Positions 1 to 13,566 of a stretch of 64,000 bases of DNA are shown piece after piece. The notes beneath the pieces were generated by a model, which was not told where the DNA came from, ran no database searches, and worked only from the letters and a program-made list of their open reading frames with translations. Location of the stretch: NCBI GenBank assembly GCA_016218585.1, contig JACRDK010000030.1, positions 24,277 to 88,276 on the forward strand. Reading direction: 5' to 3'. Each line of letters opens with the position of its first letter. Within the stretch, counting starts at the first letter, position 1. Origin of the DNA: Candidatus Doudnabacteria bacterium (GTDB lineage: Bacteria > Patescibacteriota > Doudnabacteria > UBA920). The translations under genes were made by a program, and so were the position numbers.

Positions 1-10
1 ATCTTCAGCT

Positions 11-1105
11 TTGGTAAAAGTTTTAAAAAGCGCAATTCCTTACGTTGCGGTGTTTGTAGTCGGTTTGTTTTTGTACTATTTCTTTTTTAGCAGCGTAAAT
101 TTTTCTTCCCTTTTGAGCTTTAAAAATAATACGCCGGCAACTCCAAAAGAAACCGCGTTGCAACAGTTGGAAAAGCAGGACTTAACCGCCTATAACAAAT
201 GGATTAGCGGTTTCTACTATGACGTTTCCGACGCAAAGGTTTTAGACCCGGAAACCGACAACTCCGGCAACGGCCTTTCTAACTTTCAAAAATATCTGTT
301 AAAACTCAATCCGAAATCTTACGATACTTTAGGTTTGGGTATGGCAGATAGCCAAGCCCTGGCTATGAATATTAGCCCGGTCTCCGGCGGCCAAATAACC
401 GATGCGCAAAAAGACATTATGTCCAAGTATGTTGATATGGAAGTGGTTATGAACCGCTTGGCCTTGTCTAATATGCAGAATCAGGGACGCGTAGCCGGCG
501 CCGCGGTTGGCAACAACACCTACTATAACGGCAGCACAAGCAGCAATAGCAACATTAACAATAATAACTATAACGGCAACTATAACAATAACAGCAATAG
601 CAATAATAACGGTTATAGCATCACCCCAACATCGGGCAGCGATGACATAGAAGTGAATACTTCTGTTGCGGGACGTTTGGAAATTCCGGACTTGAAAATT
701 TCCGTGCCGATTATGTGGACCTCCGACCCAAAAAACTTTGACAAAGATTTGCAATCCGGCGTTGTCCATTATCCGGGCACAGCTATGCCGGGACAGATTG
801 GCACTACTTATATTTCCGGACACTCCAGCAATTATGTTTGGGCGAAAGGAAGTTACAATAAAATTTTCTCCACCTTAGGAGATTTAGCGGACAACACATC
901 CTTTAAGATTACCGTGGTGCATAAAAACGGCAAAGTCGCCATATTCCATTACGTTGTTACTTCCAGGAAAGAATATTCTCCGACCGATCAGGAGCAGTTT
1001 AAAAATACCGGCAAGTCTATTGTGGCTTTGTCGACCTGCTGGCCGGTTGGTTCTACCGCCAAACGCTTAGTGGTTTTTGGCACCTTAACACAAGTAGAAA
1101 AATAA
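11..1105 (+). CDS. Sortase-family transpeptidase (membrane-anchored; Asn-rich low-complexity linker); possibly 5'-partial since the frame is open to position 2
   Basis: N-terminal TM segment IPYVAVFVVGLFLYYFFF. Sortase hallmarks: conserved His in ISGHSSNYVW, catalytic Cys in the TLxTC-type motif ALSTCWP, downstream Arg (AKRLVVFGTL). Asn/Tyr-rich tract NNNNYNGNYNNNSNSNNNGY between anchor and catalytic domain. TTG start at position 11. Confidence 0.7.
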   Translation: MVKVLKSAIPYVAVFVVGLFLYYFFFSSVNFSSLLSFKNNTPATPKETALQQLEKQDLTAYNKWISGFYYDVSDAKVLDPETDNSGNGLSNFQKYLLKLNPKSYDTLGLGMADSQALAMNISPVSGGQITDAQKDIMSKYVDMEVVMNRLALSNMQNQGRVAGAAVGNNTYYNGSTSSNSNINNNNYNGNYNNNSNSNNNGYSITPTSGSDDIEVNTSVAGRLEIPDLKISVPIMWTSDPKNFDKDLQSGVVHYPGTAMPGQIGTTYISGHSSNYVWAKGSYNKIFSTLGDLADNTSFKITVVHKNGKVAIFHYVVTSRKEYSPTDQEQFKNTGKSIVALSTCWPVGSTAKRLVVFGTLTQVEK

Positions 1106-1115
1106 TTTTTTATCT

Positions 1116-1155
1116 CCCTGACATAAATTACGCGGCCGCGTAATTTATGTCAGGG
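1116..1155. repeat. 40-bp perfect palindrome (ccctgacataaattacgc ggcc gcgtaatttatgtcaggg) centred on GCGGCCGC, at the junction between the sortase gene and a GC-rich island
   Basis: Read directly; the reverse complement of the left arm equals the right arm. No U-tract follows on either strand, so it is not a canonical intrinsic terminator. Confidence 0.6.
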
Positions 1156-1306
1156 ATGAGTTGATTTAAATAATATAGAGCGGGCGCGCCCGTGTTTATA
1201 ATCTGATTGTAAAAGGGTATTGTAAACATCGCGTGCTCGGCTCTCGGCCGACACATTCGTCGGCTCAGGCCGAGAACAATACAACAAAAGAAGAGGGGAT
1301 AAGACA

Positions 1307-2668
1307 GTGAATTTTGGACAACTGATTGCGATTCTGATGACCGTTCTGCTAATCGGCGGGGCTTTTCCCGTCGCGGCGCAGAGCCAACCGGTATCCACAC
1401 AAACCGCCCAGCCCCACCCGGGTGTCCGGGTGAGCGTGGAGAAGTTTCCGCTCATTCCGCCGGTACCGGGCCAGCGGCCGATTTATACGATCGGCCAGAT
1501 CGTATTCGCCGCCGAAGAAATATACAAAAGCGGCGTCAACGGCTCGTTTGTGAAGGCTTTTGGCCAGGCCAAGAGCCACGTTGAGCAGGCACAGGCAATC
1601 ATCTCCTTTGCCTCCAAAGAGTTGCTCGCGCAGCTCGAGGAGATGAAGAAGTCACCCGAAGGGCCGTTGCCGGAACCGGAGCAATATCAAGCGCTCAAGG
1701 ACCCGAAAGTGGCTTTGGACTACGCCGCTGTCAAACAATCGTTTGTGCCTTTTTCCGAATGGGGTGAAAGTCCTTTCGGAGAGGAAGTAACGGACTGGAA
1801 AGGTCTCTGTGAGACCTATCAGGATACCATGGCCGCGATGATCCAACGCACTAACTATTCACCTGCAATGAAGGTGGAATGGGCAGACGCGTTGGCTCAT
1901 GTGTGTGCCAACGGCCTTGACGGTCGCTACTCCAAGGTGGTGGATTTGGTTGACTGGCCGCTCTGGCAATGGACTACTGGTCGTACTGTTGGGACATCTC
2001 ATTCTGGAAACAGAATACCTGGTGTCAACGTGATGTACGTCGGTGGCCATGCTTCCGCCCTCTATCTCTACCTGCCCAAGTCGGCTACGGTAGTGATGCA
2101 CGGGTTCAAGTGCAAGGGGAATCCGATTGTTCCTTTCGTCATCGGTTCATTCCAGGTGACGAAGGAGACGACGAGGATTCCTGCCTGTTTGGGGCTTAAT
2201 GGCGATTCAGGCTTTGTCCAAACGGGCAAGACTGTTCGTTTCAGCGCTCACTTTGACAACCCTGCCGGAGTGCCTTTTGACTTCCGCTTCATCCTCACGG
2301 ACAAGCGGACCAGCAAAACCAAAGTGCTTGGTGAAAACCAGCCTGAGGTGACGTTGGAGCAGAAGGAGGCCGGCGAGTACGAGGTAAGTGTAACTGGCGA
2401 ATTCGAAGGGAAGCCAATACCAGCCTTGGGCTGTGTAATGGCTATCACCTTCGTTAAGCCCATTCCGCCGCCTCCGCCGACGTTTGTCACTACCACGCCT
2501 CCGCCGACAAGGCCCGCAATCGTTCCGCCGCCGCCCAAGAAGGGTGGGCACGGATGGATCTGGGTTCTTGTAGCGGCAGGTGCTGGCGCTGGCATTGGTC
2601 TGGCACTGATGGGTGGTGGAATTCGCAAGGATCCGGCAACTGCCGCTGGCACCGGCTGGAGACCGTAA
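1307..2668 (+). CDS. Hypothetical secreted, membrane-anchored protein: signal peptide, about 380-aa unknown domain, Pro-rich stalk (PPPPPTFVTTTPPPTRPAIVPPPP) and C-terminal TM helix; encoded in a roughly 58% GC island
   Basis: Long ORF with GTG start. N-terminal hydrophobic signal LIAILMTVLLIGGAFPVAAQ. C-terminal WIWVLVAAGAGAGIGLALMGG TM segment. Base composition is markedly higher in GC than all flanking genes. The 5' leader (1160-1300) contains several GC hairpins, and a T-tract hairpin follows at about 2680-2735. Confidence 0.6.
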   Translation: MNFGQLIAILMTVLLIGGAFPVAAQSQPVSTQTAQPHPGVRVSVEKFPLIPPVPGQRPIYTIGQIVFAAEEIYKSGVNGSFVKAFGQAKSHVEQAQAIISFASKELLAQLEEMKKSPEGPLPEPEQYQALKDPKVALDYAAVKQSFVPFSEWGESPFGEEVTDWKGLCETYQDTMAAMIQRTNYSPAMKVEWADALAHVCANGLDGRYSKVVDLVDWPLWQWTTGRTVGTSHSGNRIPGVNVMYVGGHASALYLYLPKSATVVMHGFKCKGNPIVPFVIGSFQVTKETTRIPACLGLNGDSGFVQTGKTVRFSAHFDNPAGVPFDFRFILTDKRTSKTKVLGENQPEVTLEQKEAGEYEVSVTGEFEGKPIPALGCVMAITFVKPIPPPPPTFVTTTPPPTRPAIVPPPPKKGGHGWIWVLVAAGAGAGIGLALMGGGIRKDPATAAGTGWRP

Positions 2669-2849
2669 TTCACTGTTCGTAAAAGCATTGGTGGTCGGGG
2701 AGAGGAGCAATCCTCTTTCCGACCTACCATTCATCAATTTTTAACTTTTTGGCTTAATTAAGGCAAGTAGTTAAAAACGGAAGAATAGTAGGTATTAAGA
2801 CAATTAAAAAAATAAACCTCTTATTTATAAGGTAAATCAATAAAAATTA

Positions 2850-2878
2850 TTGACAAACTTATAAAAAAAGTGTATAAT
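2850..2878 (+). promoter_or_regulatory. Consensus sigma-70-type promoter (TTGACA-N17-TATAAT) upstream of the giant surface protein gene
   Basis: ttgaca at 2850-2855, a 17-nt spacer, tataat at 2873-2878, within an extremely AT-rich 250-bp intergenic region. Confidence 0.55.
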
Positions 2879-2957
2879 TATAGGTTAATATAATAATAAG
2901 TAAATTTGTAATAATTAATTGGATAATTTAGAATTAGCTAATTAATAAGGCAAACAT

Positions 2958-5900
2958 ATGAACAACATTTTTTCTAAGTTAAGCATAAAGGTCTCTGGCG
3001 CAATTGGCGTTTCAATTTTTTTGGTTGCCATCGCCGTAATCGGTTTGGCTCCTAGACAAGCCACCATTAGCCGTGCTGATGGTTGCAGTCCGGTTTACAC
3101 CTCGCCGGTTTTTAACCCGTACCCTGTTACCTGGGAAGATTCCGCAGGTTATAACTGTACGGATTTTGCCGTTCTTTCCGGTAATGTCCAAGGCGCAGGT
3201 TTTTGGACTGATAATTTTCAGGCCCAGCCAGGCGACAGTATTAGCATGAGAATTTACGTGCACAACGGCGCGGGCAGCAATTCCGGCGCAGTTATGTACG
3301 GTGTTAATGTTAATACCAATATAGATACCACAACCGGAACCAGCCACGTAATTACTACTACTTTAAGCGCCAGCAATGCCGCTTCTAAAAGCGGTAGTGT
3401 GACTATTAATACTCCGGCCGGCAGCCACTTGGAATTAGTTTCCGGTGATACCAGCTTTGCGGTTGGCGATATGCAGCCGTGCTTTGAGTATTCGAAAGCT
3501 TTTCGGTTTACTTTGAAAGTCGTTGCTGATACTGTTGTTACTCCTCCTCCGGCAGAAACTGTAAGCGGGCAAATTTCCTCTTCTTTGGGAATTTGTAAAG
3601 CCAATGGCTTATACGATGCTAATGTTTCCTGGAATACTAACGCTTCCCAGGCCTTAGTCACTGTTTCCGATCCGAATTTAAACTCCGGCAACTATTACGA
3701 CAATGACAAAGTTTATAGCTACAGCAAAACTAGCAATGAAACCGCAAGTTGGTTAGCTCCTAATACCGCTTACCGTTTTACTTTGTGGTCAATTGACCCA
3801 AGCGGTACAGACCATAGCTTCCGCGACTTAAGCAATAACATTGTTAATGTTAAAGCTGTAAGACTTTATGAAACTTGGGTAACCGCCGGCGCTTCTTGCA
3901 GCCAGGTTACGCCTCCTCCGGCTAATGTTACCGGAACTATTTCCACTTCTCTTGGTATTTGTAAAGCCAATGGTTTATACAATGCCAACGTTTCCTGGAA
4001 TACCAATGCCACTCAAGGTTTGGTTACTGTTTCTGATCCTAACTTAAAATCCGGAGACTACTACGATAACGATAAAATTTATAGCACAGCCGAAACCAGC
4101 AACGAAACTGCTGATTGGTTAGCTCCGTTAACAGCATATCGCTTTACTTTGTGGTCAATTGACCCAAATGGCGTTAGCCACACTTTCCGCGATATGAGCA
4201 ACAATGTTGTAACTTACAAAGTTACCCGTTTGCAGGAATCTTGGGTAACCGCCGGCGCTTCTTGCGACCAGGTTACTCCTCCTCCGGCTAACATTACAGG
4301 AACTATTAATTCTTCTCTTGGCATTTGTAAAGCCAATGGTTTGTACAATGCCAACGTTTCCTGGAATACCAACGCGACTCAGCCGCTTGTTACCGTAAGC
4401 AACCCGCCTGCTAATTCCAATAATAACTACGACAACGATAAATTTTATAGCACCACTAAAACCGGTAATGAAACTGCTGATTGGTTAACCCCAAATACAG
4501 CTTATCGCTTTACTTTGTGGGCTATTGACCCAAATGGCGTAAACCACACTTTCCGTGATTTGAACAATAACGTTGTAACTTACAAAGTTACTCGTTTGCA
4601 GGAAACTTGGGTTACAGCCGGAAATACTTGTATAGATAACCCGCCGACTTATGAAAATGTTGTTTGTAGCGTAAGCCCATCTAACTTAAATGTTGGCCAG
4701 AGCGCTACCTTTACCGCAGACAAAGGCAATGGTACTTATGCTTGGTCTGTTACTGGAGGCTCAGTAACTTCCAGCAATCAAAAAACATTTATTAGCACCT
4801 TCAACAACGCCGGGGCATATATTGCCACCGTGTCCAGCAACGGCAAAACCGCCAGCTGTACTGTTCAGGTAGTTAATGACAATGTTTGTGTAGCAAACAC
4901 CAACTATTATTTAAACGCCACCGCTCCTGCAAAACAAGGAACGGGGTATACTGTAAAATTATCTTGGGGTTTTGATGGTAATCATCAAATTAAATTAACC
5001 CAGGTAAGCTCGGACGGTAGCGAATTAACTTTGGCTACCAGCCCGGACAAAACCGGAAGTTTAAATGTCTTTAATTTACAAGCAGGTAAAACTTATACAT
5101 TTAAAATGTATGATATTGACCCGACTTGTGGAAAGTTTTTAACTTCAACTCAGGTTGTAGTTCAGTCAAATCCGGATCAGTTAGTCTGTACATCCGATAG
5201 CTCTTCCTATAGAGTCGGCGACACCGCTGTCTTTAGAGCCAATGGCGGCAGCGGCAGTTATTCCTGGTCCGGCACCGGCAACCCGGTTTCCGGCACCGGT
5301 TCAGTATTTAATACTTCTTACAACACCGCTGGTAATAAGACTGTTACTGTAACCAGCGCCGACGGGCAAACCGCTCAGTGTAGCACAGTTGTTAATACTG
5401 TTGTTACTGAAAACGGCCAGGTTCGCTTAACCAAAGAAGTAAGAAACATCACCAACAGCGAAACTGCTTTTGCCCACGCGACCTCCGCCAAGCAAAACGA
5501 CACTGTTGAATATCGCATTAAAGTTTGGGCCGGCACTTCCGTAACCTTAACTAATGTTATAGTCAACGACAGCTTTGCTTCCGGTCTTTCTTACATAGAT
5601 AACTCTTTATTTGTAGACGGCACATCTCACGCGGCTGGTTTAACTTCCGGCGGCCTTACCTTTACTTCCGTTGGCCAAACGCCGTTGGTAATTATTTACC
5701 GCGCTAAAGTTACCGCCACTATGGGAACTATTGTAAACACCGCCCAGGCTGTAGCTTCCAACGCTACCAACACTGCTGTTGACCAGGCTTTGGTAAATGT
5801 TGCTTATGTTAATCCGGGACAGCCTTCCTTGTCTATTATTAAACAAGTGAAGAATGTTACCCAGAACACCAACTATGATACTTCGGTTTTGGCTAATAAA

Positions 5901-7289
5901 AATGACGTTGTTAAATACCAGGTCATTATAAAAAATGTCGGCCAAGCTACCGCCAAGAATGTTTTCTTTAACGACAGCAATCCAGCCCAGGTCCAGCCGT
6001 TAACCGGCCTTACTGTCTCCATTGCTTACACCGGCGGCATTCCTGCCGGAGTTGCTTTGGGTGATTTAGCCGCAGGCGCTACCGTGACTATTACTTATCA
6101 GGGAACTGTGAAAGTTGACAGCGGCACTATATTAAACGTAGCCACCGCTTCTTCCGACAACGCAACCAGCCAGAATGCTTCCGCAACAGTAGTTGTTAAT
6201 ACTCAAAACAACAACGGCGGCAACAGCAACTACAACTATTGCGTTAACTATTCCTGCAATACCACAATCAACAACACTACAAACACAACCAACACCACAA
6301 CCACAAATAATAACTACACTTACAACAACTACAGCTACGTTTACATTAACAGCACCGGCAATACTGTACCGGCTAATCAATATAGCCAGTTAAGCATTAC
6401 CAAATCTGTTAGAACTGTAAATAATGGTACTTACCAAAACAGCGTAAACGTAAACAATGGCGATACCGTTGAGTTCGAAATTGTGGTTACTAACTCCGGC
6501 AATCAAAACATAAACAATGTCCGCTTAACCGACAATTTGCCGAGCGGCTTGAATCTGGTAAACGGCAGCGTGCGCGTAGACGGATCTTACGTCTCCAGCA
6601 GCAACCTTTACAGCGGAATGTATTTGGGCAGTTTGTCTACCGGCCAGCAAAAGCGCATTAACTTCCAGGCCACAGTAAACAATTCTAATTCCAGCATTCA
6701 AAATATTGCTATGGTTTCCGGCGACAACGCTTCTTCCGTTCAGGATGATGCCTGGGTGTTTACAAATACGGGTTCTGTCCAGGGCGGCAATGTAAGCCTT
6801 ACTTACAGCAAGCGCGCCATTAACGAAACCAAGAGCCAGGACGCGACTTCTGTAGTTGCCTCCAAGGAAGATTACATTACCTACACCTTAACCGCTTCCA
6901 ACAACGGCAACACTCCGGCCAACAACTTCATTATTACCGATGATTTGTCCCAGGTCTTGCCATATGCCGACATTGTCGACAACGGCGGCGGCAGCGTGAA
7001 CGGAAATGTAATTTCCTTCCCGGGCCTTACTGTTCCGGCTTACGGATCTGTTTCCAGAAGCTTTAAAGTTAGAGTTAAATATTCTTTGGCTGATAACTTG
7101 GCCTATGTTATGACTAATACTTACGGCAACACCTTAAATATTAGAATTAATAACCCGCAGGTTTTGGGAGCCTTTGTTGCTCCGAAGACCGGTGCGGAAA
7201 CCGGCGCCTTTGCTTTCTCCGGATTGTTAACCGCCGCCGCAGCCTTGTTTAAGCGCAGAAAAGAAATTCTAAAGTTAATCTTCACCTAA
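2958..7289 (+). CDS. Giant cell-surface protein (1443 aa): signal anchor, three tandem roughly 120-aa repeats, multiple DUF11-like conserved-repeat domains, Asn/Thr-rich low-complexity region, C-terminal tripartite sorting signal (APKTG/AETG motif, hydrophobic stretch, KRRKE tail)
   Basis: N-terminal TM IGVSIFLVAIAVIGLA. Three near-identical repeats TPPPA..SLGICKANGLY.ANVSWNTNA...AYRFTLWSIDP. DUF11-like units such as VEYRIKVWAGTSVTLTNVIVNDSF, VKYQVIIKNVGQATAKNVFFND and VEFEIVVTNSGNQNINNVRLTDNLP. C-terminus FVAPKTGAETGAFAFSGLLTAAAALFKRRKEILK resembles LPXTG/LAXTG-type cell-wall sorting signals. Confidence 0.85.
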   Translation: MNNIFSKLSIKVSGAIGVSIFLVAIAVIGLAPRQATISRADGCSPVYTSPVFNPYPVTWEDSAGYNCTDFAVLSGNVQGAGFWTDNFQAQPGDSISMRIYVHNGAGSNSGAVMYGVNVNTNIDTTTGTSHVITTTLSASNAASKSGSVTINTPAGSHLELVSGDTSFAVGDMQPCFEYSKAFRFTLKVVADTVVTPPPAETVSGQISSSLGICKANGLYDANVSWNTNASQALVTVSDPNLNSGNYYDNDKVYSYSKTSNETASWLAPNTAYRFTLWSIDPSGTDHSFRDLSNNIVNVKAVRLYETWVTAGASCSQVTPPPANVTGTISTSLGICKANGLYNANVSWNTNATQGLVTVSDPNLKSGDYYDNDKIYSTAETSNETADWLAPLTAYRFTLWSIDPNGVSHTFRDMSNNVVTYKVTRLQESWVTAGASCDQVTPPPANITGTINSSLGICKANGLYNANVSWNTNATQPLVTVSNPPANSNNNYDNDKFYSTTKTGNETADWLTPNTAYRFTLWAIDPNGVNHTFRDLNNNVVTYKVTRLQETWVTAGNTCIDNPPTYENVVCSVSPSNLNVGQSATFTADKGNGTYAWSVTGGSVTSSNQKTFISTFNNAGAYIATVSSNGKTASCTVQVVNDNVCVANTNYYLNATAPAKQGTGYTVKLSWGFDGNHQIKLTQVSSDGSELTLATSPDKTGSLNVFNLQAGKTYTFKMYDIDPTCGKFLTSTQVVVQSNPDQLVCTSDSSSYRVGDTAVFRANGGSGSYSWSGTGNPVSGTGSVFNTSYNTAGNKTVTVTSADGQTAQCSTVVNTVVTENGQVRLTKEVRNITNSETAFAHATSAKQNDTVEYRIKVWAGTSVTLTNVIVNDSFASGLSYIDNSLFVDGTSHAAGLTSGGLTFTSVGQTPLVIIYRAKVTATMGTIVNTAQAVASNATNTAVDQALVNVAYVNPGQPSLSIIKQVKNVTQNTNYDTSVLANKNDVVKYQVIIKNVGQATAKNVFFNDSNPAQVQPLTGLTVSIAYTGGIPAGVALGDLAAGATVTITYQGTVKVDSGTILNVATASSDNATSQNASATVVVNTQNNNGGNSNYNYCVNYSCNTTINNTTNTTNTTTTNNNYTYNNYSYVYINSTGNTVPANQYSQLSITKSVRTVNNGTYQNSVNVNNGDTVEFEIVVTNSGNQNINNVRLTDNLPSGLNLVNGSVRVDGSYVSSSNLYSGMYLGSLSTGQQKRINFQATVNNSNSSIQNIAMVSGDNASSVQDDAWVFTNTGSVQGGNVSLTYSKRAINETKSQDATSVVASKEDYITYTLTASNNGNTPANNFIITDDLSQVLPYADIVDNGGGSVNGNVISFPGLTVPAYGSVSRSFKVRVKYSLADNLAYVMTNTYGNTLNIRINNPQVLGAFVAPKTGAETGAFAFSGLLTAAAALFKRRKEILKLIFT
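3540..4620 (+). repeat. Three tandem roughly 360-bp direct repeats, highly similar at nucleotide level, inside the giant surface protein gene
   Basis: Repeat starts at about 3540, 3900 and 4260 all read gttac(t/g)cctcctccggc...ggaactatt...tctcttgg(t/c)atttgtaaagccaatgg(t/c)ttatacaatgc; the protein units are about 120 aa each. Confidence 0.8.
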
Positions 7290-7299
7290 ACAAAATTGT

Positions 7300-7340
7300 A
7301 AAAACCCCGCCTTTGACTTGCTCAGGGCGGGGTTTTTGTT
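7300..7340 (+). terminator. Rho-independent terminator after the giant surface protein gene
   Basis: aaaaaccccgcc tttgacttgctca gggcggggtttttgttt: a 7-8 bp GC stem followed by a T-run. Confidence 0.8.
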
Positions 7341-7540
7341 TGGGCGCTTGTCAGATGAGTGTAATAACCCTGCCGGTGTCGCCCCGGAATTTTTAGCCTG
7401 CCCGCCGAAGCCTTGGCGAAGTTGGGGGTTGTAAAAATATTCGGGATCCGGAACTTGGCTTAAATACTGGATCCCGGCTCGGGAGCCGGGATGACACCAG
7501 GCTTAGGTTATTGGACTTACGTCTTGCCTGCTTGCATATT
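7341..7540. ncRNA. Candidate structured non-coding RNA of unknown family (GC-rich, multi-hairpin element between a terminator and the next promoter)
   Basis: A roughly 200-nt GC-rich block in an AT-rich intergenic region. Nested helices: cgggatcc...ggatcccg; cccggctc g gagccggg; caggc..gcctg; long-range pairing aataacc/ggttatt and ggtgtc/gacacc enclosing a multi-stem junction. The only ORF (7393-7587 minus) is low-complexity and improbable. No match to SRP RNA, tmRNA, RNase P or tRNA motifs that I could recognise. Confidence 0.35.
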
Positions 7541-7670
7541 TTTTTCCAGATGTTATGATATATACAAATCAAAAAACAAATGAACAAGCGGCAAAATATG
7601 TGCCGTTTTTATTATAAGTAGGATTTTTTTATACCTAGCATCTGTTATCTAATATCTAACATCTAAATTT

Positions 7671-8846
7671 ATGGACAACACATACTTGCAGGAGCTAATA
7701 AACGAAACCAAACTTCGGGGCGGCGGGTTATTGCTTAATTATGAAGATAAGCCGGCTGTGGTTGTTTTAACCGTGGATAAATATAACAGCTTGCTAGAGG
7801 GCCAAGAGTTAGGAATTAAGAATCAAGCGGTTGAAATTCAAACAAGCCCCAAGGCAGAACTAGCCAGTACCCAATCTGTAAAAAAAGTTTTGGTTACCGG
7901 GGGAGCCGGATATATTGGCGGGCATTTGGTTCGGGAGTTAATTAAGCAGAATTATGAAGTGGTGGTTTTAGACAATCTTTCCACCGGCCGCAGGGAGAAT
8001 ATTGATCCGAAGGCAATTTTTGTGGAAGGAGATTTAGCCGATGTAAATTTGCTCCGCGATATTTTTGCCAATAACAACATATCCGCGGTTTTTCATATGG
8101 CCGCCAGCCTGGAAGTGGAAGAGTCTGTTAGGGAACCGGAAAAATATTTTAAAAATAATACCCAAAACACTATCGGACTTTTAGAAGTTATGAAAGAGTT
8201 GGGGATTAACAAAATAATTTTTTCCTCAACCGCCGCGGTTTATGGCGAAAATGCCAAAGTTCCGATTAACGAAAACTCCCCGCTGCATCCCAATAATCCG
8301 TACGGCTCCAGCAAGCTGCTCACCGAAAGGAATATTAAATATTTTTGCGAGTACCTTGGTTTTAAGGCCGTAATTTTCCGCTATTTTAACGCCTGCGGTT
8401 TTGACGAAGAAGCCAATATTTTGCCGACCCACCAGTCTCACTTAATTTACAAAGTTATGCAGGTTGCCAAAGGAGCCGAACCGATTTTAAAAATTTTTGG
8501 CAACGACTACGAAACATTTGACGGTACCTGCATTCGCGATTATGTCCATGTGCTGGATATTGTCTTGCCGCATATTTTGGCTTTGGAAAAGTTAAATGGA
8601 GATTTGAAATTTGAAATTATAAACATTGGCACCGGCACAGGCTTAAGCGTTGCCCAAATTGTCAACGGAGCTTCAGAAATCATCGGCCGCATTATTCCCA
8701 TGGAAACCGCGCCGCGCCGCGCCGGGGACGCGCCGGCAACGGTTGCCGACAACTCCAAACTGGTTAACTTGCTGGGCTATGAGCCTAAATTTAGCAGCCT
8801 AAATAACATACTTACCAGCAGCTGGGAAGTTCTGAAAAAAGATTAA
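7671..8846 (+). CDS. galE: UDP-glucose 4-epimerase / NAD-dependent epimerase-dehydratase with a roughly 70-aa N-terminal extension resembling a Phd/YefM antitoxin fold
   Basis: Rossmann motif VLVTGGAGYIGGHLV, catalytic YGSSKLLTE (YxxxK), C-terminal epimerase domain. N-terminal KPAVVVLTVDKYNSLLEGQEL resembles YefM [20 protein letters not shown]. No in-frame stop or alternative start between extension and epimerase core. Confidence 0.85.
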   Translation: MDNTYLQELINETKLRGGGLLLNYEDKPAVVVLTVDKYNSLLEGQELGIKNQAVEIQTSPKAELASTQSVKKVLVTGGAGYIGGHLVRELIKQNYEVVVLDNLSTGRRENIDPKAIFVEGDLADVNLLRDIFANNNISAVFHMAASLEVEESVREPEKYFKNNTQNTIGLLEVMKELGINKIIFSSTAAVYGENAKVPINENSPLHPNNPYGSSKLLTERNIKYFCEYLGFKAVIFRYFNACGFDEEANILPTHQSHLIYKVMQVAKGAEPILKIFGNDYETFDGTCIRDYVHVLDIVLPHILALEKLNGDLKFEIINIGTGTGLSVAQIVNGASEIIGRIIPMETAPRRAGDAPATVADNSKLVNLLGYEPKFSSLNNILTSSWEVLKKD

Positions 8847-8856
8847 ATTCAAATTA

Positions 8857-8897
8857 AACACCCTTCATAACTATGAGGGGTGTTTAATTTTTTGAAA
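8857..8897 (+). terminator. Rho-independent terminator after galE
   Basis: taaacaccc ttcataactatga ggggtgttta followed by attttttg. Confidence 0.75.
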
Positions 8898-9026
8898 CAA
8901 ATTCACAAGGAAATCGTCATAATAGGAGCAGAGGTTTTTTCTATGTTATAATATATGCAAGGATTTCCTAAAATTTTGGGTAGCTTTGCCCGGGGTTTTA
9001 AGGGCTAGAATAATAAATATAACAAA

Positions 9027-9749
9027 ATGAAAAAACTTTCGGTTATTATACCGGCGTATAATGAAGAACATCGCATAGGCTCCACTTTGGGAGCAATTCA
9101 TAATTATCTTTCCAAGCAAAATTATGAATATGAAATTATCGTTGTTATTGATGGAGCCAAGGACAAGACCGCGGAAGTAGTTTCGGGCATGCAGAGCCAG
9201 ATAAAAAATTTAACGGTTTTAAATAACAAACAAAACCACGGCAAGGGCTGGGTGGTGCGCCAGGGGATGCTTCAGGCTGTTGGCGAGTATAGACTGTTTA
9301 CGGACGCCGACAATTCCACTTCCATTGAGCAAGTAGAAAAGTTTTTTCCGTTTATGAGCCAGGGTTATGATATTGTAATCGGTTCCATAGAAGTTGAGGG
9401 CGCGCAAATAAATGAACACGCCCAGTGGTATAGAAGGTTTTTAGGCCATTGGTCAAAGTTGTTAATTCGCGTGGTTGCCGGAGTCTGGCAAATTCACGAC
9501 ACCCAGCGCGGCTTTAAATTATTTACCGCTAAAGCTGCGGAAAGAATTTTTTTCCAGGCTAAGATTGACCGTTTTGGTTTTGACATAGAAATTCTGGCCG
9601 CTGCCGTAAAGTGCGGCTATAAAATTAAGGAAGTTCCGGTAGTGTGGAATAACGCCGGGGAATCGACAGTTAGTTTAAAAAGTTACCTTGAAGTTTTTAA
9701 AGATTTGCTTCGCGTAAGATGGTACTTATGGACCGGCAAGTATAAATAA
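9027..9749 (+). CDS. Family 2 glycosyltransferase (dolichyl/polyprenyl-phosphate sugar transferase-like)
   Basis: LSVIIPAYNEEHRI at N-terminus, DxD-type motif FTDADNS, typical GT2 (DPM1-like) architecture of about 240 aa. Confidence 0.85.
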   Translation: MKKLSVIIPAYNEEHRIGSTLGAIHNYLSKQNYEYEIIVVIDGAKDKTAEVVSGMQSQIKNLTVLNNKQNHGKGWVVRQGMLQAVGEYRLFTDADNSTSIEQVEKFFPFMSQGYDIVIGSIEVEGAQINEHAQWYRRFLGHWSKLLIRVVAGVWQIHDTQRGFKLFTAKAAERIFFQAKIDRFGFDIEILAAAVKCGYKIKEVPVVWNNAGESTVSLKSYLEVFKDLLRVRWYLWTGKYK

Positions 9750-9753
9750 TTTT

Positions 9754-11640
9754 ATGAAGTTTTTTAGCACACAGCACCAGCATAGTTTCCTTTCAAATTT
9801 GTTAGAAAGTGCGGCAAAGATTTTAAGCTTTGCCGCAGTTTTTGCGTTTATTGCCTCGCCGATTTTTCCCGTAAACTACGCGCTGGCGCAAAAATCCGAA
9901 ACCACTTATATGGTCAAATTAAAAACAGGATTCGGCGAAAACTTGTTAAGCAAAGTCGGCTCAAACATTCGCCACCGTTTTGTTTCCGCCGAGTCGCCGG
10001 TTTTTTATAATATTTATAGTTTTAGTTCCGGTTATTCAGCGGCAGTTTTAACGGACTATTTAAAAAATAAAGCGGAATATTTGGAAGAGCAAAAACCTTT
10101 AGCAGCTTCTTCCGTTTATGTGAACGATCCCGGGTTTTCCACCGATCCGTTAAATATTGATAAACAATGGGCTTTAATAAAGGCGGGTTTTGATAAAGCC
10201 TGGGAAAAAACCACCGGAAGCAAAAGCAATGTTGTGGCGGTAATAGATACAGGAGTAGACGAAACCCACCAGGACTTATCGGCAATTAATTTTGTAAAAG
10301 GTTTTAATTTTATTTCCAACCAGGAAATTGCCACAAGCACCAATTCGGACGACAACGGCCACGGAACATTAGTTACCGGCGTTCTTGGCGCCACCGCAAA
10401 CAACGGTTTGGGAATAATTGGAACCAACTGGCAGATTTCCGTTATGCCTCTTAAAGCGCTTGACGCAAACGGCAAAGGCGAAGCGGCGGATGTGGCCGAA
10501 GCTATTGTTTGGGCCACTGACCACGGCGCGCAGTTTTTAAATATGAGCATTGGCGGCATTGGCTTTGGCCATGACACTACTTTGGCTAACGCCGTTACTT
10601 ACGCCTTTAATAAAAATGTTTTACTGGTGGCGGCCGCCGGAAATGACGTGGCGGCAACAGGCAGCAATTTGGACCAAAGCCCGGTGTTCCCAATTTGCGA
10701 TGATAATAATTTTAATATGGTAATTGGCGTTTCCGCCAGCGATCAAAATGATTTAAAGCCGGACTTTTCCAACTACGGCAGAAATTGCATAGATGTAACA
10801 GCCCCCGGAAAAAGAATTTTGTCCACAATAAATTATGACCCGCTTACAAAAAAAGCATCGCCTAGTTCTTATGCCTATGCTTCCGGAACCTCTTTGGCAG
10901 TGCCTTTTGTGGTCGGCCAAGCCGCTCTAATAAAGGCGCTGTATCCGTTTGCTACTAATATTCAAATACGCGACCGAATAATTACCACTGCAGACCCAAT
11001 TGATAATTTAAATCTTACTCAGTGCGCCGGCGGCCCTTGCCGCGGCCTTTTGGGAACCGGAAGAATTAATGTTTTAAATAGTTTGCAGACCGCGATAGCC
11101 CAGGGGTATGCGGAAGGCGACTTGGTAAAGGAAGAAAGCACCGGGGCAATGTATCAAATAATTGGCGGGCAAAAAAGATTAATTTCCCCATTTGTTTACA
11201 ACCAGCGTTTCAGCGGTTCTAAATTAAAAACTCTTAGCGCCGGGGAATTGGCCTCTTTGCCGGACGGAAGCTATGTTACGCCAAACGACGGCACTCTGGT
11301 AAAGCTGGACTCCGACCCCACGGTATATGTTATTGCCAACGGACAAAAACAGCCCGTGTCGTATCAGGTTTTTTTGCAAAGAAAAATGAATTTTGCCAGC
11401 GTAAACACTTTAAGCTTTTCGGAAGTTAATTCCTGGATTACCGGAAGCTTTTATCCGCCGGAAGAGGGAACCTTGATAAAATCAGATAAAGATAAAACCG
11501 TTTATTGGGTTGTTGGCCAAACCTTGCACCCGATTAACTATGGATTTTTTATGGAGCGGGGTTTGAATGTTTTTCCAATCTTGGTAGTTTCTGAAAAAGA
11601 TATTGTCAGTTTTGCAAAAGGGGAGAGTTATATAAGATAG
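9754..11640 (+). CDS. Secreted subtilisin-like serine protease (peptidase S8) with N-terminal propeptide and three C-terminal roughly 58-aa repeats
   Basis: Catalytic triad motifs VIDTGVDETHQDL (Asp), HGTLVTGVLGA (His), GTSLAVPFVVGQAAL (Ser). Signal peptide. C-terminal repeats GTLVKLDSDPTVYVIANGQKQPVSYQVF... repeated three times. Confidence 0.9.
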   Translation: MKFFSTQHQHSFLSNLLESAAKILSFAAVFAFIASPIFPVNYALAQKSETTYMVKLKTGFGENLLSKVGSNIRHRFVSAESPVFYNIYSFSSGYSAAVLTDYLKNKAEYLEEQKPLAASSVYVNDPGFSTDPLNIDKQWALIKAGFDKAWEKTTGSKSNVVAVIDTGVDETHQDLSAINFVKGFNFISNQEIATSTNSDDNGHGTLVTGVLGATANNGLGIIGTNWQISVMPLKALDANGKGEAADVAEAIVWATDHGAQFLNMSIGGIGFGHDTTLANAVTYAFNKNVLLVAAAGNDVAATGSNLDQSPVFPICDDNNFNMVIGVSASDQNDLKPDFSNYGRNCIDVTAPGKRILSTINYDPLTKKASPSSYAYASGTSLAVPFVVGQAALIKALYPFATNIQIRDRIITTADPIDNLNLTQCAGGPCRGLLGTGRINVLNSLQTAIAQGYAEGDLVKEESTGAMYQIIGGQKRLISPFVYNQRFSGSKLKTLSAGELASLPDGSYVTPNDGTLVKLDSDPTVYVIANGQKQPVSYQVFLQRKMNFASVNTLSFSEVNSWITGSFYPPEEGTLIKSDKDKTVYWVVGQTLHPINYGFFMERGLNVFPILVVSEKDIVSFAKGESYIR

Positions 11641-11712
11641 GGGAAATATTTAGCATATAGCATATAGTATTTAGAATATAGGAGAGAGAATTTAGAATTA
11701 AGAGAGGAGTTT

Positions 11713-13566
11713 ATGAAAAAACAAAAGTACATAAAAATTATTTCCGGACTATTTTTGGTCGTCTTTCCATTTTTGGCAATTGCCCAATCGCCGGACCCAA
11801 ATTTTAATCCAAGCAAGCTTATTGAAGACAAAACTTTTTCCGACACCAAGACTTTTGGCGGCGCTGATGGCATACAAAAATTTTTGGTTGCCAAAAATTC
11901 CGTTCTGGCCAATACCAGCCCGGATTTTTTAGCTAAGCTTAAAGAGCCGCAATCGGTTATGTTAAAAGAAGGTTTGGGAGACCCGCAGCCAAACTTAGGC
12001 CGTTTGCGCACCGCGGCAGAATTAATTTGGGACGCTTCCATTCAGAGCGGCCTTAACCCGCAAGTTATTTTGGTTACCTTAAACAAAGAGCAGGGGTTAA
12101 TAACTTCGGCTAACGATTACGACGCGGCGCGCCTGCAAAAAGCTTTAGATCACGCTATGGGTTTTGATTGTCCGGACTCCAGCGGTTGCGGCAATCTTTT
12201 CCCGGGTTTTTATTTTCAGATTTTTGGCAACTACGATTCGGAAAATAACCGCTATTTAGGCGCGGCAAAATCGTTAATGAAATCTTTTACCACTGTTGGC
12301 GGAAGAGGCCCGGTAGTGGAAGGCGCGGCCGCAAAAGTTGGCCAGGCGATTACTTTAGACAACACTATGGGCGGGTATGAAAATATTATGCCGCAGCAAA
12401 CTTTTATTATTTCCAACAATGCCACGGCCGCGTTGTATCGTTATACCCCGCACGTCTTTAACGGCAACTATAATTTTTGGAAATTTTTTCAAGGCTGGTT
12501 TAAGTATCCAAACGGCACTCTGTTAAAACTTGCCGGCGGCGCGGATTTATACATTATTGAAAATGGCGTTAAGCAGTTGGTGCCGCAATTTGTGGCCCAG
12601 GCCAGGGCGCTAGATGTAAATTCTACCATTACGGTATCGCCAACGGAGTATGACAGCTACACCACAGACAAGCCTTTGGGACCGGTTGATAATACCGTTG
12701 TTCAGGACGCCAGCGGAACAAAGTATGTTTTTATTAGCAACGTCAGGCACCAGGCCTCGGATTTAGTTATTAAACAAAGAGGCTTGGATCCGGCAAAAAC
12801 TTTGAGCATAACCCCGACGGAAGCGGCAATTTTTGACGCCGGTTCGGTCTTGCCGCCTAAAGATGGAACGGTTATTCGCGGCGTTGCAGACCAAAGCGTT
12901 TACTTAGTTGCTAACGGACAAATTAAAATGTTTAGCGCATACACCTTTGCGCAAAATAAAATTAAAGCCAAAGATATTTACACAGTGCCCGACGCGGAAA
13001 TTGCCACCTATAGTAAAAATGGTTTTGTAGCTCCGCTTGACGGCAGCTTGGTAAAGACCGCCTCAAATGGTACGGTTTACTTGGTGGAAAATTCCTTAAA
13101 GCGCCCAATTTTGGCAGACATATTTAAAATTAGAGGGTTTAGCTTTAAAAACGTGAGTGCTATTTCGGAAGATGAAATGAGTTCTTTGCCGATTGGCGCT
13201 TATGCCACGCCGAAGGACAGAACGTTCTTTGCGGTTGATTCCAAAACCGGCCCCTTATATATGTTTAAAGAAGGAACTAAACACAGCATCTCCAGTTTTG
13301 TGGCCAAGCAGCGCGGCATAACTCCGGATTATGTTTTCAGCAACAGCGTGGCAATAGAATGGTATGACGGCATTCCTGTTCCGCCGGCTAACAACACAAT
13401 TATAAAAGGCGATTCCGACCAGACTGTATTCTTGGTTGTTAATGGACAATTAAGGCCGCTCACTTATCAGGCCTTTAAGAATCGCAAAATTACCGCAAAG
13501 AAAATTGTAACTTTGCCTCAAATCGAAGTTGACGCTTACGCCAAAGGCGATACTTTGACCAAGTAG
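11713..13566 (+). CDS. Secreted protein with unknown N-terminal domain and six copies of the same roughly 58-aa repeat found in the upstream S8 protease
   Basis: Signal peptide IISGLFLVVFPFLAIAQS. Repeats begin GTLLKLAGGADLYIIENG, NTVVQDASGTKYVFISN, GTVIRGVADQSVYLVANG, GSLVKTASNGTVYLVENS, RTFFAVDSKTGPLYMFKEG, NTIIKGDSDQTVFLVVNG, each ending in a ...P/PP boundary. Confidence 0.75.
   Translation: MKKQKYIKIISGLFLVVFPFLAIAQSPDPNFNPSKLIEDKTFSDTKTFGGADGIQKFLVAKNSVLANTSPDFLAKLKEPQSVMLKEGLGDPQPNLGRLRTAAELIWDASIQSGLNPQVILVTLNKEQGLITSANDYDAARLQKALDHAMGFDCPDSSGCGNLFPGFYFQIFGNYDSENNRYLGAAKSLMKSFTTVGGRGPVVEGAAAKVGQAITLDNTMGGYENIMPQQTFIISNNATAALYRYTPHVFNGNYNFWKFFQGWFKYPNGTLLKLAGGADLYIIENGVKQLVPQFVAQARALDVNSTITVSPTEYDSYTTDKPLGPVDNTVVQDASGTKYVFISNVRHQASDLVIKQRGLDPAKTLSITPTEAAIFDAGSVLPPKDGTVIRGVADQSVYLVANGQIKMFSAYTFAQNKIKAKDIYTVPDAEIATYSKNGFVAPLDGSLVKTASNGTVYLVENSLKRPILADIFKIRGFSFKNVSAISEDEMSSLPIGAYATPKDRTFFAVDSKTGPLYMFKEGTKHSISSFVAKQRGITPDYVFSNSVAIEWYDGIPVPPANNTIIKGDSDQTVFLVVNGQLRPLTYQAFKNRKITAKKIVTLPQIEVDAYAKGDTLTK

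Follow-up and report, generated by a model that had tools for sequence, protein, structure and literature searches.

In the class A system of SrtA and LPXTG, a Cys transpeptidase that is anchored in the membrane and has a His/Cys/Arg triad and a beta-barrel recognizes a three-part C-terminal signal that several unrelated substrates share, and natural deviations from LPXTG also include NPQTN (class B) and LPXTA (class D). Further variants are the [SP]PxTG motif of C. difficile SrtB, a class B enzyme (PMC4371152), the LAXTG motif of class E enzymes such as Streptomyces SrtE1 (PMC5148588) and the NPXTG tail of Ruminococcus (model NF033846). More than half of the genomes of the candidate phyla radiation (CPR)/Patescibacteria encode sortases (PMC6744442), and no description of a sorting motif for these sortases was found in the literature searched. 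In 7.7 million PMC papers and in bioRxiv, APKTG or APxTG occurred in a sortase context only for the engineered SrtA variants F40 and cW11. The present work deals with a stretch of 64,000 nucleotides (the window) from a Candidatus Doudnabacteria bacterium (assembly GCA_016218585.1, contig JACRDK010000030.1, positions 24,277 to 88,276 of the forward strand), the left end of which carries a sortase gene and the gene of a 1443-aa surface protein that ends in APKTG, a hydrophobic segment and a basic tail. Judging from sequence comparison, these two are probably a cognate sortase-substrate pair that uses APxTG. The APxTG tail would thus be a natural variant of a known sortase system, not previously described in the literature searched, and not a new kind of system.

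The sortase family, the catalytic triad and the fold of the enzyme, the three-part signal, the conservation of its motif, its unrelated carriers and the gene linkage were all established by computation. The listing of open reading frames (ORFs) in window positions 1-9000 contains three on the same strand (11-1105, 1307-2668 and 2958-7289). An earlier analysis made from the letters of the window without database searches (the sequence-only reading) had taken the first of them for a sortase-family gene encoding 364 aa. The family stands; both the length and the TTG start at base 11 are artefacts. The frame is open from window base 2, the gene is cut by the left window edge, and its product is 100% identical to residues 83-449 of the 449-aa protein P0001, annotated at NCBI as 'MAG: sortase [Candidatus Doudnabacteria bacterium]' (MAG, metagenome-assembled genome). 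The parts of the enzyme encoded in the window are the following (pLDDT, predicted local distance difference test of the AlphaFold2 model):

2-1105, + strand: 3' part of the sortase gene, residues 83-449 of 449 aa, the first 82 codons lying upstream of the window (open frame, identity to P0001, Pfam, TIGR01076).
8-88, + strand: membrane-anchor helix of the sortase, P0001 residues 85-111, hydrophobic AIPYVAVFVVGLFLYYFFF (AlphaFold2 helix, pLDDT 87-90).
143-490, + strand: helical ectodomain of the sortase, residues 130-245, containing DPETDNSGNGLSNFQKYLLKLNP (pLDDT >90; invariant columns).
491-652, + strand: Asn/Tyr-rich disordered linker of the sortase, with a degenerate ITPTSGSD at 620-643 (TPTSG at 623-637) (pLDDT <50 at residues 252-292).
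653-1102, + strand: catalytic beta-barrel domain of the sortase (pLDDT >90, invariant triad, Foldseek).

The enzyme matched the Pfam family PF04203 (E = 1e-20, 74.2 bits, cutoff 26.6) and the generic NCBIfam model TIGR01076 (42.9 bits, cutoff 39.35). The TLxTC-type Cys, the His and the Arg pointed out in the sequence-only reading were found as C428 (ALSTCWP, nt 1037-1039), H356 (ISGHSS, nt 821-823) and R437 (AKRLVVFG, nt 1064-1066), all three invariant across an alignment of 115 orthologues that are 50-65% identical. None of the class-specific sortase hidden Markov models (HMMs) of NCBIfam (NF0337xx, classes A-F) reached its cutoff: class C gave 57.9 bits (cutoff 160), SrtD 50.8 (140), class D 49.8 (165), class E 41.7 (160) and class F 21.7 (166), with no match listed for class A or class B. 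The search against sortase profiles proposed with the sequence-only reading was thus passed with the generic models and with no class from A to F, class C coming nearest.

The AlphaFold2 model of the sortase (mean pLDDT 77) comprises five regions, including a disordered cytoplasmic head (84 aa), the confidently predicted helical ectodomain and a beta-barrel (residues 300-449) with pLDDT >90. A Foldseek search of the catalytic domain against the PDB gave 101 matches at E <=0.001; the 50 listed were sortases without exception, headed by one at 2.7e-12. Near-equal scores, with E values of 1e-12 to 1e-10 and root-mean-square deviations of 2.3-3.1 A, were reached by enzymes of class C (A. oris SrtC1 2xwg, C. 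diphtheriae 5k9a/6bwe, pneumococcal SrtC3 2w1k and group B Streptococcus SrtC1 3tbe) and of class A (S. pyogenes 7t8z, S. mutans 4tqx). Matches to the PDB by sequence were weak (E ~1e-5), with about 20-28% identity to solved sortases. An assignment to a class was dropped, given these weak sequence matches and the near tie of classes C and A by fold; the enzyme is a genuine sortase outside the curated classes.

The helical ectodomain (residues 130-245) gave no Pfam match at E values up to 5. Its invariant columns among the 115 orthologues include W149, Y154, D168, S170, N172 and G173, and it is conserved about as strongly as the catalytic domain. The ectodomain motif DPExDNSGNGLSNFQKYLLNLNPKSYDT resembles a calcium-binding loop. 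The cytoplasmic N-terminus of the family (P0001 residues 1-25, upstream of the window) has a conserved KKYPxxTxEVAKMLG, predicted as helical at residues 15-21, which is unusual for a sortase.

The giant surface protein proposed at 2958-7289 is present and carries PKD and DUF11 domains. The Asn/Tyr-rich tracts reported for both proteins were confirmed as the sortase linker and the spacer listed here. The features of the surface protein are the following:

2958-7289, + strand: gene of the 1443-aa surface protein (ORF listing; Pfam domains).
3573-4621, + strand: tandem repeat of 2.9 copies of a 366-nt (122-aa) unit, residues 206-555 (Tandem Repeats Finder, 79% matches, score 1178).
6198-6362, + strand: Asn/Thr/Tyr-rich low-complexity spacer, residues 1081-1135, between DUF11-type domains (sequence reading).
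7173-7286, + strand: sorting signal, FV-APKTG-hydrophobic AETGAFAFSGLLTAAAALF-KRRK-EILK-LIFT (sequence reading; TIGR01167; 120 tails, see below).

The protein consists of an N-terminal hydrophobic export segment GAIGVSIFLVAIAVIGLA, an N-terminal domain, repeats, PKD-like and DUF11/DUF7507 domains, the Asn/Thr/Tyr-rich spacer and the tail. DUF11 was matched at 82.1 bits (cutoff 24.6) in 4 stretches, DUF7507 at 37 bits (cutoff 27) and TIGR01451 at 86.2 bits, and bMG10 and PKD were also matched; the first 316 residues had no Pfam match at E values up to 5. This architecture recurs in at least 30 loci, in two of which (L001 12922-17519 and L014 12589-15179) the big gene is split into two overlapping ORFs, possibly by a frameshift, an assembly error or pseudogene formation. 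DUF11 and DUF7507 have recently been renamed CLIPPER and CLIPPER_2, isopeptide-stabilised stalk domains of fibrillar adhesins (PMC12617251), and the 1443-aa protein resembles those adhesins in its four DUF11 stretches, DUF7507, PKD-like repeats, signal peptide and sorting signal.

The C-terminus of the protein reads ...FVAPKTGAETGAFAFSGLLTAAAALFKRRKEILKLIFT, with APKTG at 7179-7193, a hydrophobic segment of 19 aa at 7194-7250, KRRK at 7251-7262 and LIFT at 7275-7286, and 31 residues follow the motif Gly. The three-part C-terminal signal and the N-terminal export signal are therefore both present in the protein. The motif, hydrophobic segment and basic tail had been recognized in the sequence-only reading, which left off the last four residues, LIFT; these are conserved. 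Isolated, the tail matched the LPXTG_anchor model TIGR01167 at 23.4 bits (cutoff 15.9), and in the context of the whole protein it scored 14.8 bits; 31 of 34 related tails matched this model when isolated. NCBIfam release 20 holds no model dedicated to an APKTG-type tail.

A homology search with the last 373 residues of the 1443-aa protein returned 49 proteins. Among 38 close homologues with a C-terminus, 36 had APKTG, one APQTG and one PPKTG, and APKTG was retained even in a subfamily whose identity over the queried region falls to 33-36%; four distant homologues had LPKTG, LPNTG, LPSTG and LPVTG. The AETG that had been read as an alternative motif was discarded, being confined to the closest relatives and replaced by ADTN, GPSA or GNT in other tails. 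A profile of 38 positions built from 34 tails was then compared with 1.84 billion cluster representatives and gave 173 matches at E <=1e-3. About 50 of the 150 matches listed were repeat-translation artefacts and were discarded. The artefact proteins (P0188, P0196, P0204, P0205 and others) consist of ISIHAPRTGSD, FQSTLPARGAT and FNPRSPHGER units resembling translated DNA repeats, and they contaminate any APxTG motif search.

Pooling the tails of the homology search with the profile matches left 120 tails judged real. APKTG was found in 95 of them, APTTG in 12, APRTG in 3, PPKTG in 3 and APQTG in 2, with one each of APHTG, APATG, APPTG, APETG and PPVTG. Thus 116 tails have Ala at position 1, four have Pro and none has Leu, whereas the Pro at position 2 was invariant. 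The two residues before the motif were FV, FI, FT or YV in 92 tails, the two after it were mostly A/G/S/V and then D/N, and the median number of residues after the motif Gly was 32. After the basic cluster, 88 of the 120 tails, across unrelated protein families, had an L-I-F-[TSN]-like end (EILKLIFT at 7263-7286 in the window); LPXTG signals are not known to have such a conserved C-terminal end. The conservation of AP[KT]TG, in about 110 of the 120 tails, is well beyond chance, and the Ala in place of Leu at position 1 appears to reflect a lineage-wide specificity of the sortase family and not a quirk of one protein.

The signal was also found on proteins of other architectures. About 12 of the 120 tails lacked the NTYGNTV module that precedes the motif in the main family, and eight proteins with NPFGDWTGVNN repeats bear the tail (P0271, P0283, P0290, P0296, P0301, P0306, P0253 and P0255). 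Members of this repeat family combine a signal peptide and a single DUF11-like domain with as many as about 15 NPFG[DT]W[TS]GVNN repeats and a Y[FY]VAP[KT]TGVN tail, and they are not sortase-linked; for the repeats of P0271 (L034 5237-6454) no Pfam match is on record. Since the genes downstream of P0271 are syntenic with window positions 35-44 kb (44-59% identical), the contig is from the same lineage. Further carriers are the PKD-like P0202, the small P0239 with an N-terminal membrane segment and the APETG protein P0292, and small Ser/Thr-rich proteins are also among the APxTG-tailed candidates; P0239 and P0255 come from one Patescibacteria MAG. The APxTG signal is therefore independent of protein family. 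All other candidate substrates found in the lineage carry APxTG, and no clearly different motif of the kind that the sequence-only reading had named as contrary evidence was found among them. No further xPxTG tail was found in the 64-kb window, and no LPXTG-type tail in 462 kb of related loci, a survey biased towards these loci.

Gene linkage was analysed from both sides. Through the sortase, 14 genome loci were retrieved from Doudnabacteria MAGs, several of them deposited under the label 'Saccharibacteria'. Wherever such a sortase-anchored genome locus included any downstream DNA (13 loci), a homologue of the big protein was present, on the same strand and starting about 60-3500 bp downstream, and the 7 genome loci with a complete big gene all ended in F[VIT]APKTG. 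Independently, 19 metagenome loci were retrieved by the tail alone (10-tail alignment), and an orthologous sortase was found upstream in the six with enough upstream DNA (L016, L017, L018, L022, L026 and L030). Synteny of sortase and substrate was thus observed in 19 of 19 informative loci. This conserved linkage and the shared APxTG tails support the earlier proposal that the pair defines the recognition motif of the sortase.

A copy of the motif was also found within the sortases themselves. The low-complexity linker contains [AS]PxTG in 42 of the 115 orthologues (31 APxTG and 11 SPxTG), and two more linkers carry VPQTG or PPLTG. The distance from this motif to the conserved Gly at the start of the barrel is 16-25 residues. 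A/S/V and D/N usually come after the motif and Y/F and V/T often before it, flanks that are like those of the substrates: the copies of P0016 (YVAPKTGADL), P0023 (AVAPKTGADL), P0084 (YVAPKTGVNL) and P0104 (YTAPKTGANS) can be compared with FVAPKTGADT in substrates. In 2000 composition-preserving shuffles, a mean of 1.1 and a maximum of 6 linkers had the motif against the 42 observed, a number inflated by the kinship of the orthologues; the linker around the motif is not conserved and is otherwise unalignable. Many other orthologues retain remnants (VNTGANL, VQTGADL), and the window enzyme has the decayed copy ITPTSGSD. In the AlphaFold2 model of P0016, residues 268-276 reach pLDDT >=50 (block means 52-54; about 50-60 for the APKTG residues) whereas the flanks on both sides stay below 50, and a single beta-bridge is predicted at G273, which is a hint at docking of the linker motif and not evidence for it; in the model of P0001 there is nothing comparable, and the decayed motif lies at the edge of the disordered region.

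The sortase family may, as a tentative explanation, carry its own recognition motif in cis, either as a tethered pseudo-substrate gating the active site or as a site of self-processing. Self-processing, if true, would release a catalytic domain that starts with a newly exposed Gly, while the membrane-bound helical ectodomain would stay attached to the wall, and either form of action in cis would be a regulatory principle not found described for natural sortases. In class C sortases the active site is occupied by a lid, a DP[FWY] segment on the N-terminal side of the barrel. The position of the linker element, before the first barrel strand, would be roughly that of this lid; however, the element copies the substrate motif instead of DP[FWY], is present in about 38% of orthologues, and its docking in the active site is only putative.

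When compared with the class A system, the Doudnabacteria pair shares the anchored Cys transpeptidase with its triad and beta-barrel, the three-part signal with Pro, Thr and Gly kept, and the use of one signal by several unrelated substrates. It differs in Ala, never Leu, at position 1, in the aromatic/aliphatic pair before the motif and in the L-I-F-[TSN] end, and the 449-aa enzyme, with its 84-aa cytoplasmic head, helical ectodomain and low-complexity linker, had no class A model among the NCBIfam matches listed. The sequence-only reading had compared the motif with the LAXTG of class E. Both are lineage-wide deviations from LPXTG that involve Ala, but in class E (PMC5148588) Ala replaces the Pro at position 2, whereas in Doudnabacteria Pro is kept and position 1 changes; together with the low class E score, this speaks against that comparison. 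The NPXTG of Ruminococcus is a curated variant at position 1, with Asn and not Ala and in another lineage, and the window tail did not reach the cutoff of its model NF033846 (21.1 against 23.5 bits).

The closest natural motif is the [SP]PxTG of C. difficile SrtB. A small residue replaces Leu there too (SPKTG, PPKTG), Lys is typical at position 3, and PPKTG tails and SPxTG linker copies also occur in Doudnabacteria; SrtB is, however, of class B, absent among the matches listed for the Doudnabacteria enzyme, and Ala is not in the C. difficile motifs (PMC4371152). The peptides APKTG or APATG are shared with the engineered S. aureus SrtA variants F40 and cW11 (PMC9126251, PMC8248031, PMC11638967), which were obtained by directed evolution of the beta6/beta7 loop, whereas the Doudnabacteria family is natural and its specificity is predicted. 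In S. aureus SrtA that loop reads motif position 1, and it is altered in F40. The equivalent loop of the Doudnabacteria enzyme, PTDQxQFxNTGKS, has an invariant Q414 and near-invariant D411, F415 and N417, and by analogy it is an obvious candidate for reading Ala at position 1.

The name APxTG could overstate this specificity if the sortase, although the true partner, were not Ala-specific and tolerated a small residue (A, S or P) or contacted the upstream [FY]-[VIT]. The four tails with Pro at position 1, the place of SPxTG as the second commonest linker form, the strong conservation of positions -2/-1 and the motif of C. difficile SrtB (PMC4371152) agree with this explanation, which nevertheless seems unlikely: Ala in 116 and Leu in none of the 120 tails point to real selection at position 1, whatever else aids binding.

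Under the preferred reading of a cognate pair, the 1443-aa protein would be exported by the Sec pathway, and the hydrophobic segment near its C-terminus, together with the KRRK stop-transfer tail, would retain it in the membrane. The neighbouring membrane-anchored sortase would recognize APKTG, probably within [FY]-[VIT]-A-P-x-T-G-[AGSV]-[DN]; Cys428 would attack the Thr-Gly bond to give an acyl-enzyme, and transfer of the protein to a peptidoglycan-precursor amine would produce a wall-bound, fibrillar, adhesin-like PKD/CLIPPER stalk. Since the window also has genes for MurG, a Mur ligase, MurB and SecA, along with a large glycan-synthesis cluster, both a peptidoglycan precursor and the Sec pathway are at hand. 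Cleavage between Thr and Gly, the acceptor nucleophile and attachment to the wall, as opposed to polymerisation or release, are taken over from the S. aureus SrtA paradigm.

A polymerising sortase of the pilus type (class C-like), with the big protein as a pilus subunit or tip adhesin joined to other subunits, is a less probable alternative than a relaxed specificity. Class C gave the best class-specific HMM score and is the class of the closest solved structures (2xwg, 5k9a/6bwe, 2w1k, 3tbe), a dedicated sortase beside a single substrate recalls the layout of a pilus locus, and many orthologues carry a lid-like element in the linker before the catalytic domain. However, the class C score is far under its cutoff and class A structures score almost equally. 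The 1443-aa protein contains no YPK or PKN pilin-motif string and far exceeds the size of a shaft pilin, and each locus has only one substrate-type gene and no set of pilin genes; the unlinked proteins of different architecture that bear the same signal fit a general anchoring enzyme of the housekeeping type. It is very improbable that the C-terminus is a mere membrane anchor or the target of another system, with APKTG as the structural end of the last domain and the sortase acting elsewhere: the segment NTYGNTVxIRINxPQVLGAF before the motif is conserved along with it in the main family and TIGR01167 is just under its cutoff in whole-protein scoring, but the motif, spacing, hydrophobic stretch and basic tail recur without the NTYGNTV module, nearly all isolated tails match the LPXTG-anchor model, sortase and substrate are syntenic in every informative locus, and no exosortase-, archaeosortase- or rhombosortase-type gene is present among the genes annotated in the window.

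Several points weigh against a cognate pair using APxTG. The whole 1443-aa protein, at 14.8 bits, falls just short of the TIGR01167 cutoff of 15.9. The tail profile was built from APKTG tails and is hence biased towards Ala at position 1; a Leu variant would cost a few bits only, within the range of the profile matches (36-71 bits). For P0149, an APKTG protein with the same downstream context, the upstream gene encodes a class A penicillin-binding protein and not a sortase, and the substrates in L024 and L034 are unlinked to a sortase. The big gene seems to have a promoter of its own and may be transcribed separately from the sortase. A second sortase or LPXTG substrates may exist in the genome beyond the surveyed loci, and cleavage, its site and the acceptor are proposals from comparison.

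The gap of about 1.8 kb stated earlier between the sortase and the giant gene measures 1.85 kb; it is not empty and contains the following features:

1307-2668, + strand: intervening ORF of 453 aa, PKD-like, proline-rich, with a C-terminal membrane helix (ORF listing and Pfam).
2850-2878, + strand: sigma-70-type promoter, TTGACA-17 nt-TATAAT (12/12 consensus match).

Besides its signal peptide and its C-terminal membrane helix, the product of the intervening ORF has a PPPPP-rich stretch; its PKD match is sub-threshold (22.4 bits, cutoff 23.5) and it contains no xPxTG motif. Homologues lie directly 3' of the sortase only in the related loci L001 and L009, and in L022 and L025 different C-terminally anchored proteins hold this site, so that the ORF is an optional occupant of the locus. 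The promoter, predicted by consensus match, lies about 80 nt 5' of the big gene's start codon. Hairpins resembling terminators were found at 1180-1193, after the sortase stop codon, and at 7317-7331 and 7586-7608, after the big gene.

Downstream of the substrate gene, positions 7671-13566 encode an NAD-dependent epimerase, a GT2 glycosyltransferase, an S8 subtilase-type protein of about 620 aa and a 617-aa protein, in a gene order retained in L021, L022, L025, L028, L030 and L035. This block, which runs on into the large glycan-synthesis cluster, suggests a conserved region of cell-surface biogenesis. All non-nested ORFs of at least 150 aa in the window are on the + strand, the cumulative GC skew climbs almost uninterrupted over the 64 kb, and no tRNA gene is present in the window. 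The G+C content across the window is about 0.34-0.48; it is 0.46-0.48 in the first 4 kb and lower (0.34-0.46) in most of the remainder.

Engineered APxTG ligases have been used at the native APATG site of histone H3 (PMC9126251, PMC11638967). This specificity has so far come only from directed evolution of S. aureus SrtA, and a natural family could supply orthogonal ligases. For one CPR lineage, the analysis gives a predicted signature for sorted proteins, consisting of [FY]-[VIT]-A-P-x-T-G, a hydrophobic stretch, a basic tail and L-I-F-[TSN]. Pattern searches would miss such proteins, as illustrated by the patterns of one recent survey of CLIPPER adhesins (LP.T[GAND], NP.TG, LP.GA, LA.TG, NPQTN and IP.TG), none of which covers AP.TG (PMC12617251). 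Since the LPXTG HMM is also at its detection edge in whole proteins, the surface proteomes of these bacteria are therefore under-annotated. Some cultivated relatives of these ultra-small bacteria live attached to other microbes, and the giant adhesin-like substrates are obvious candidates for a role in host attachment.

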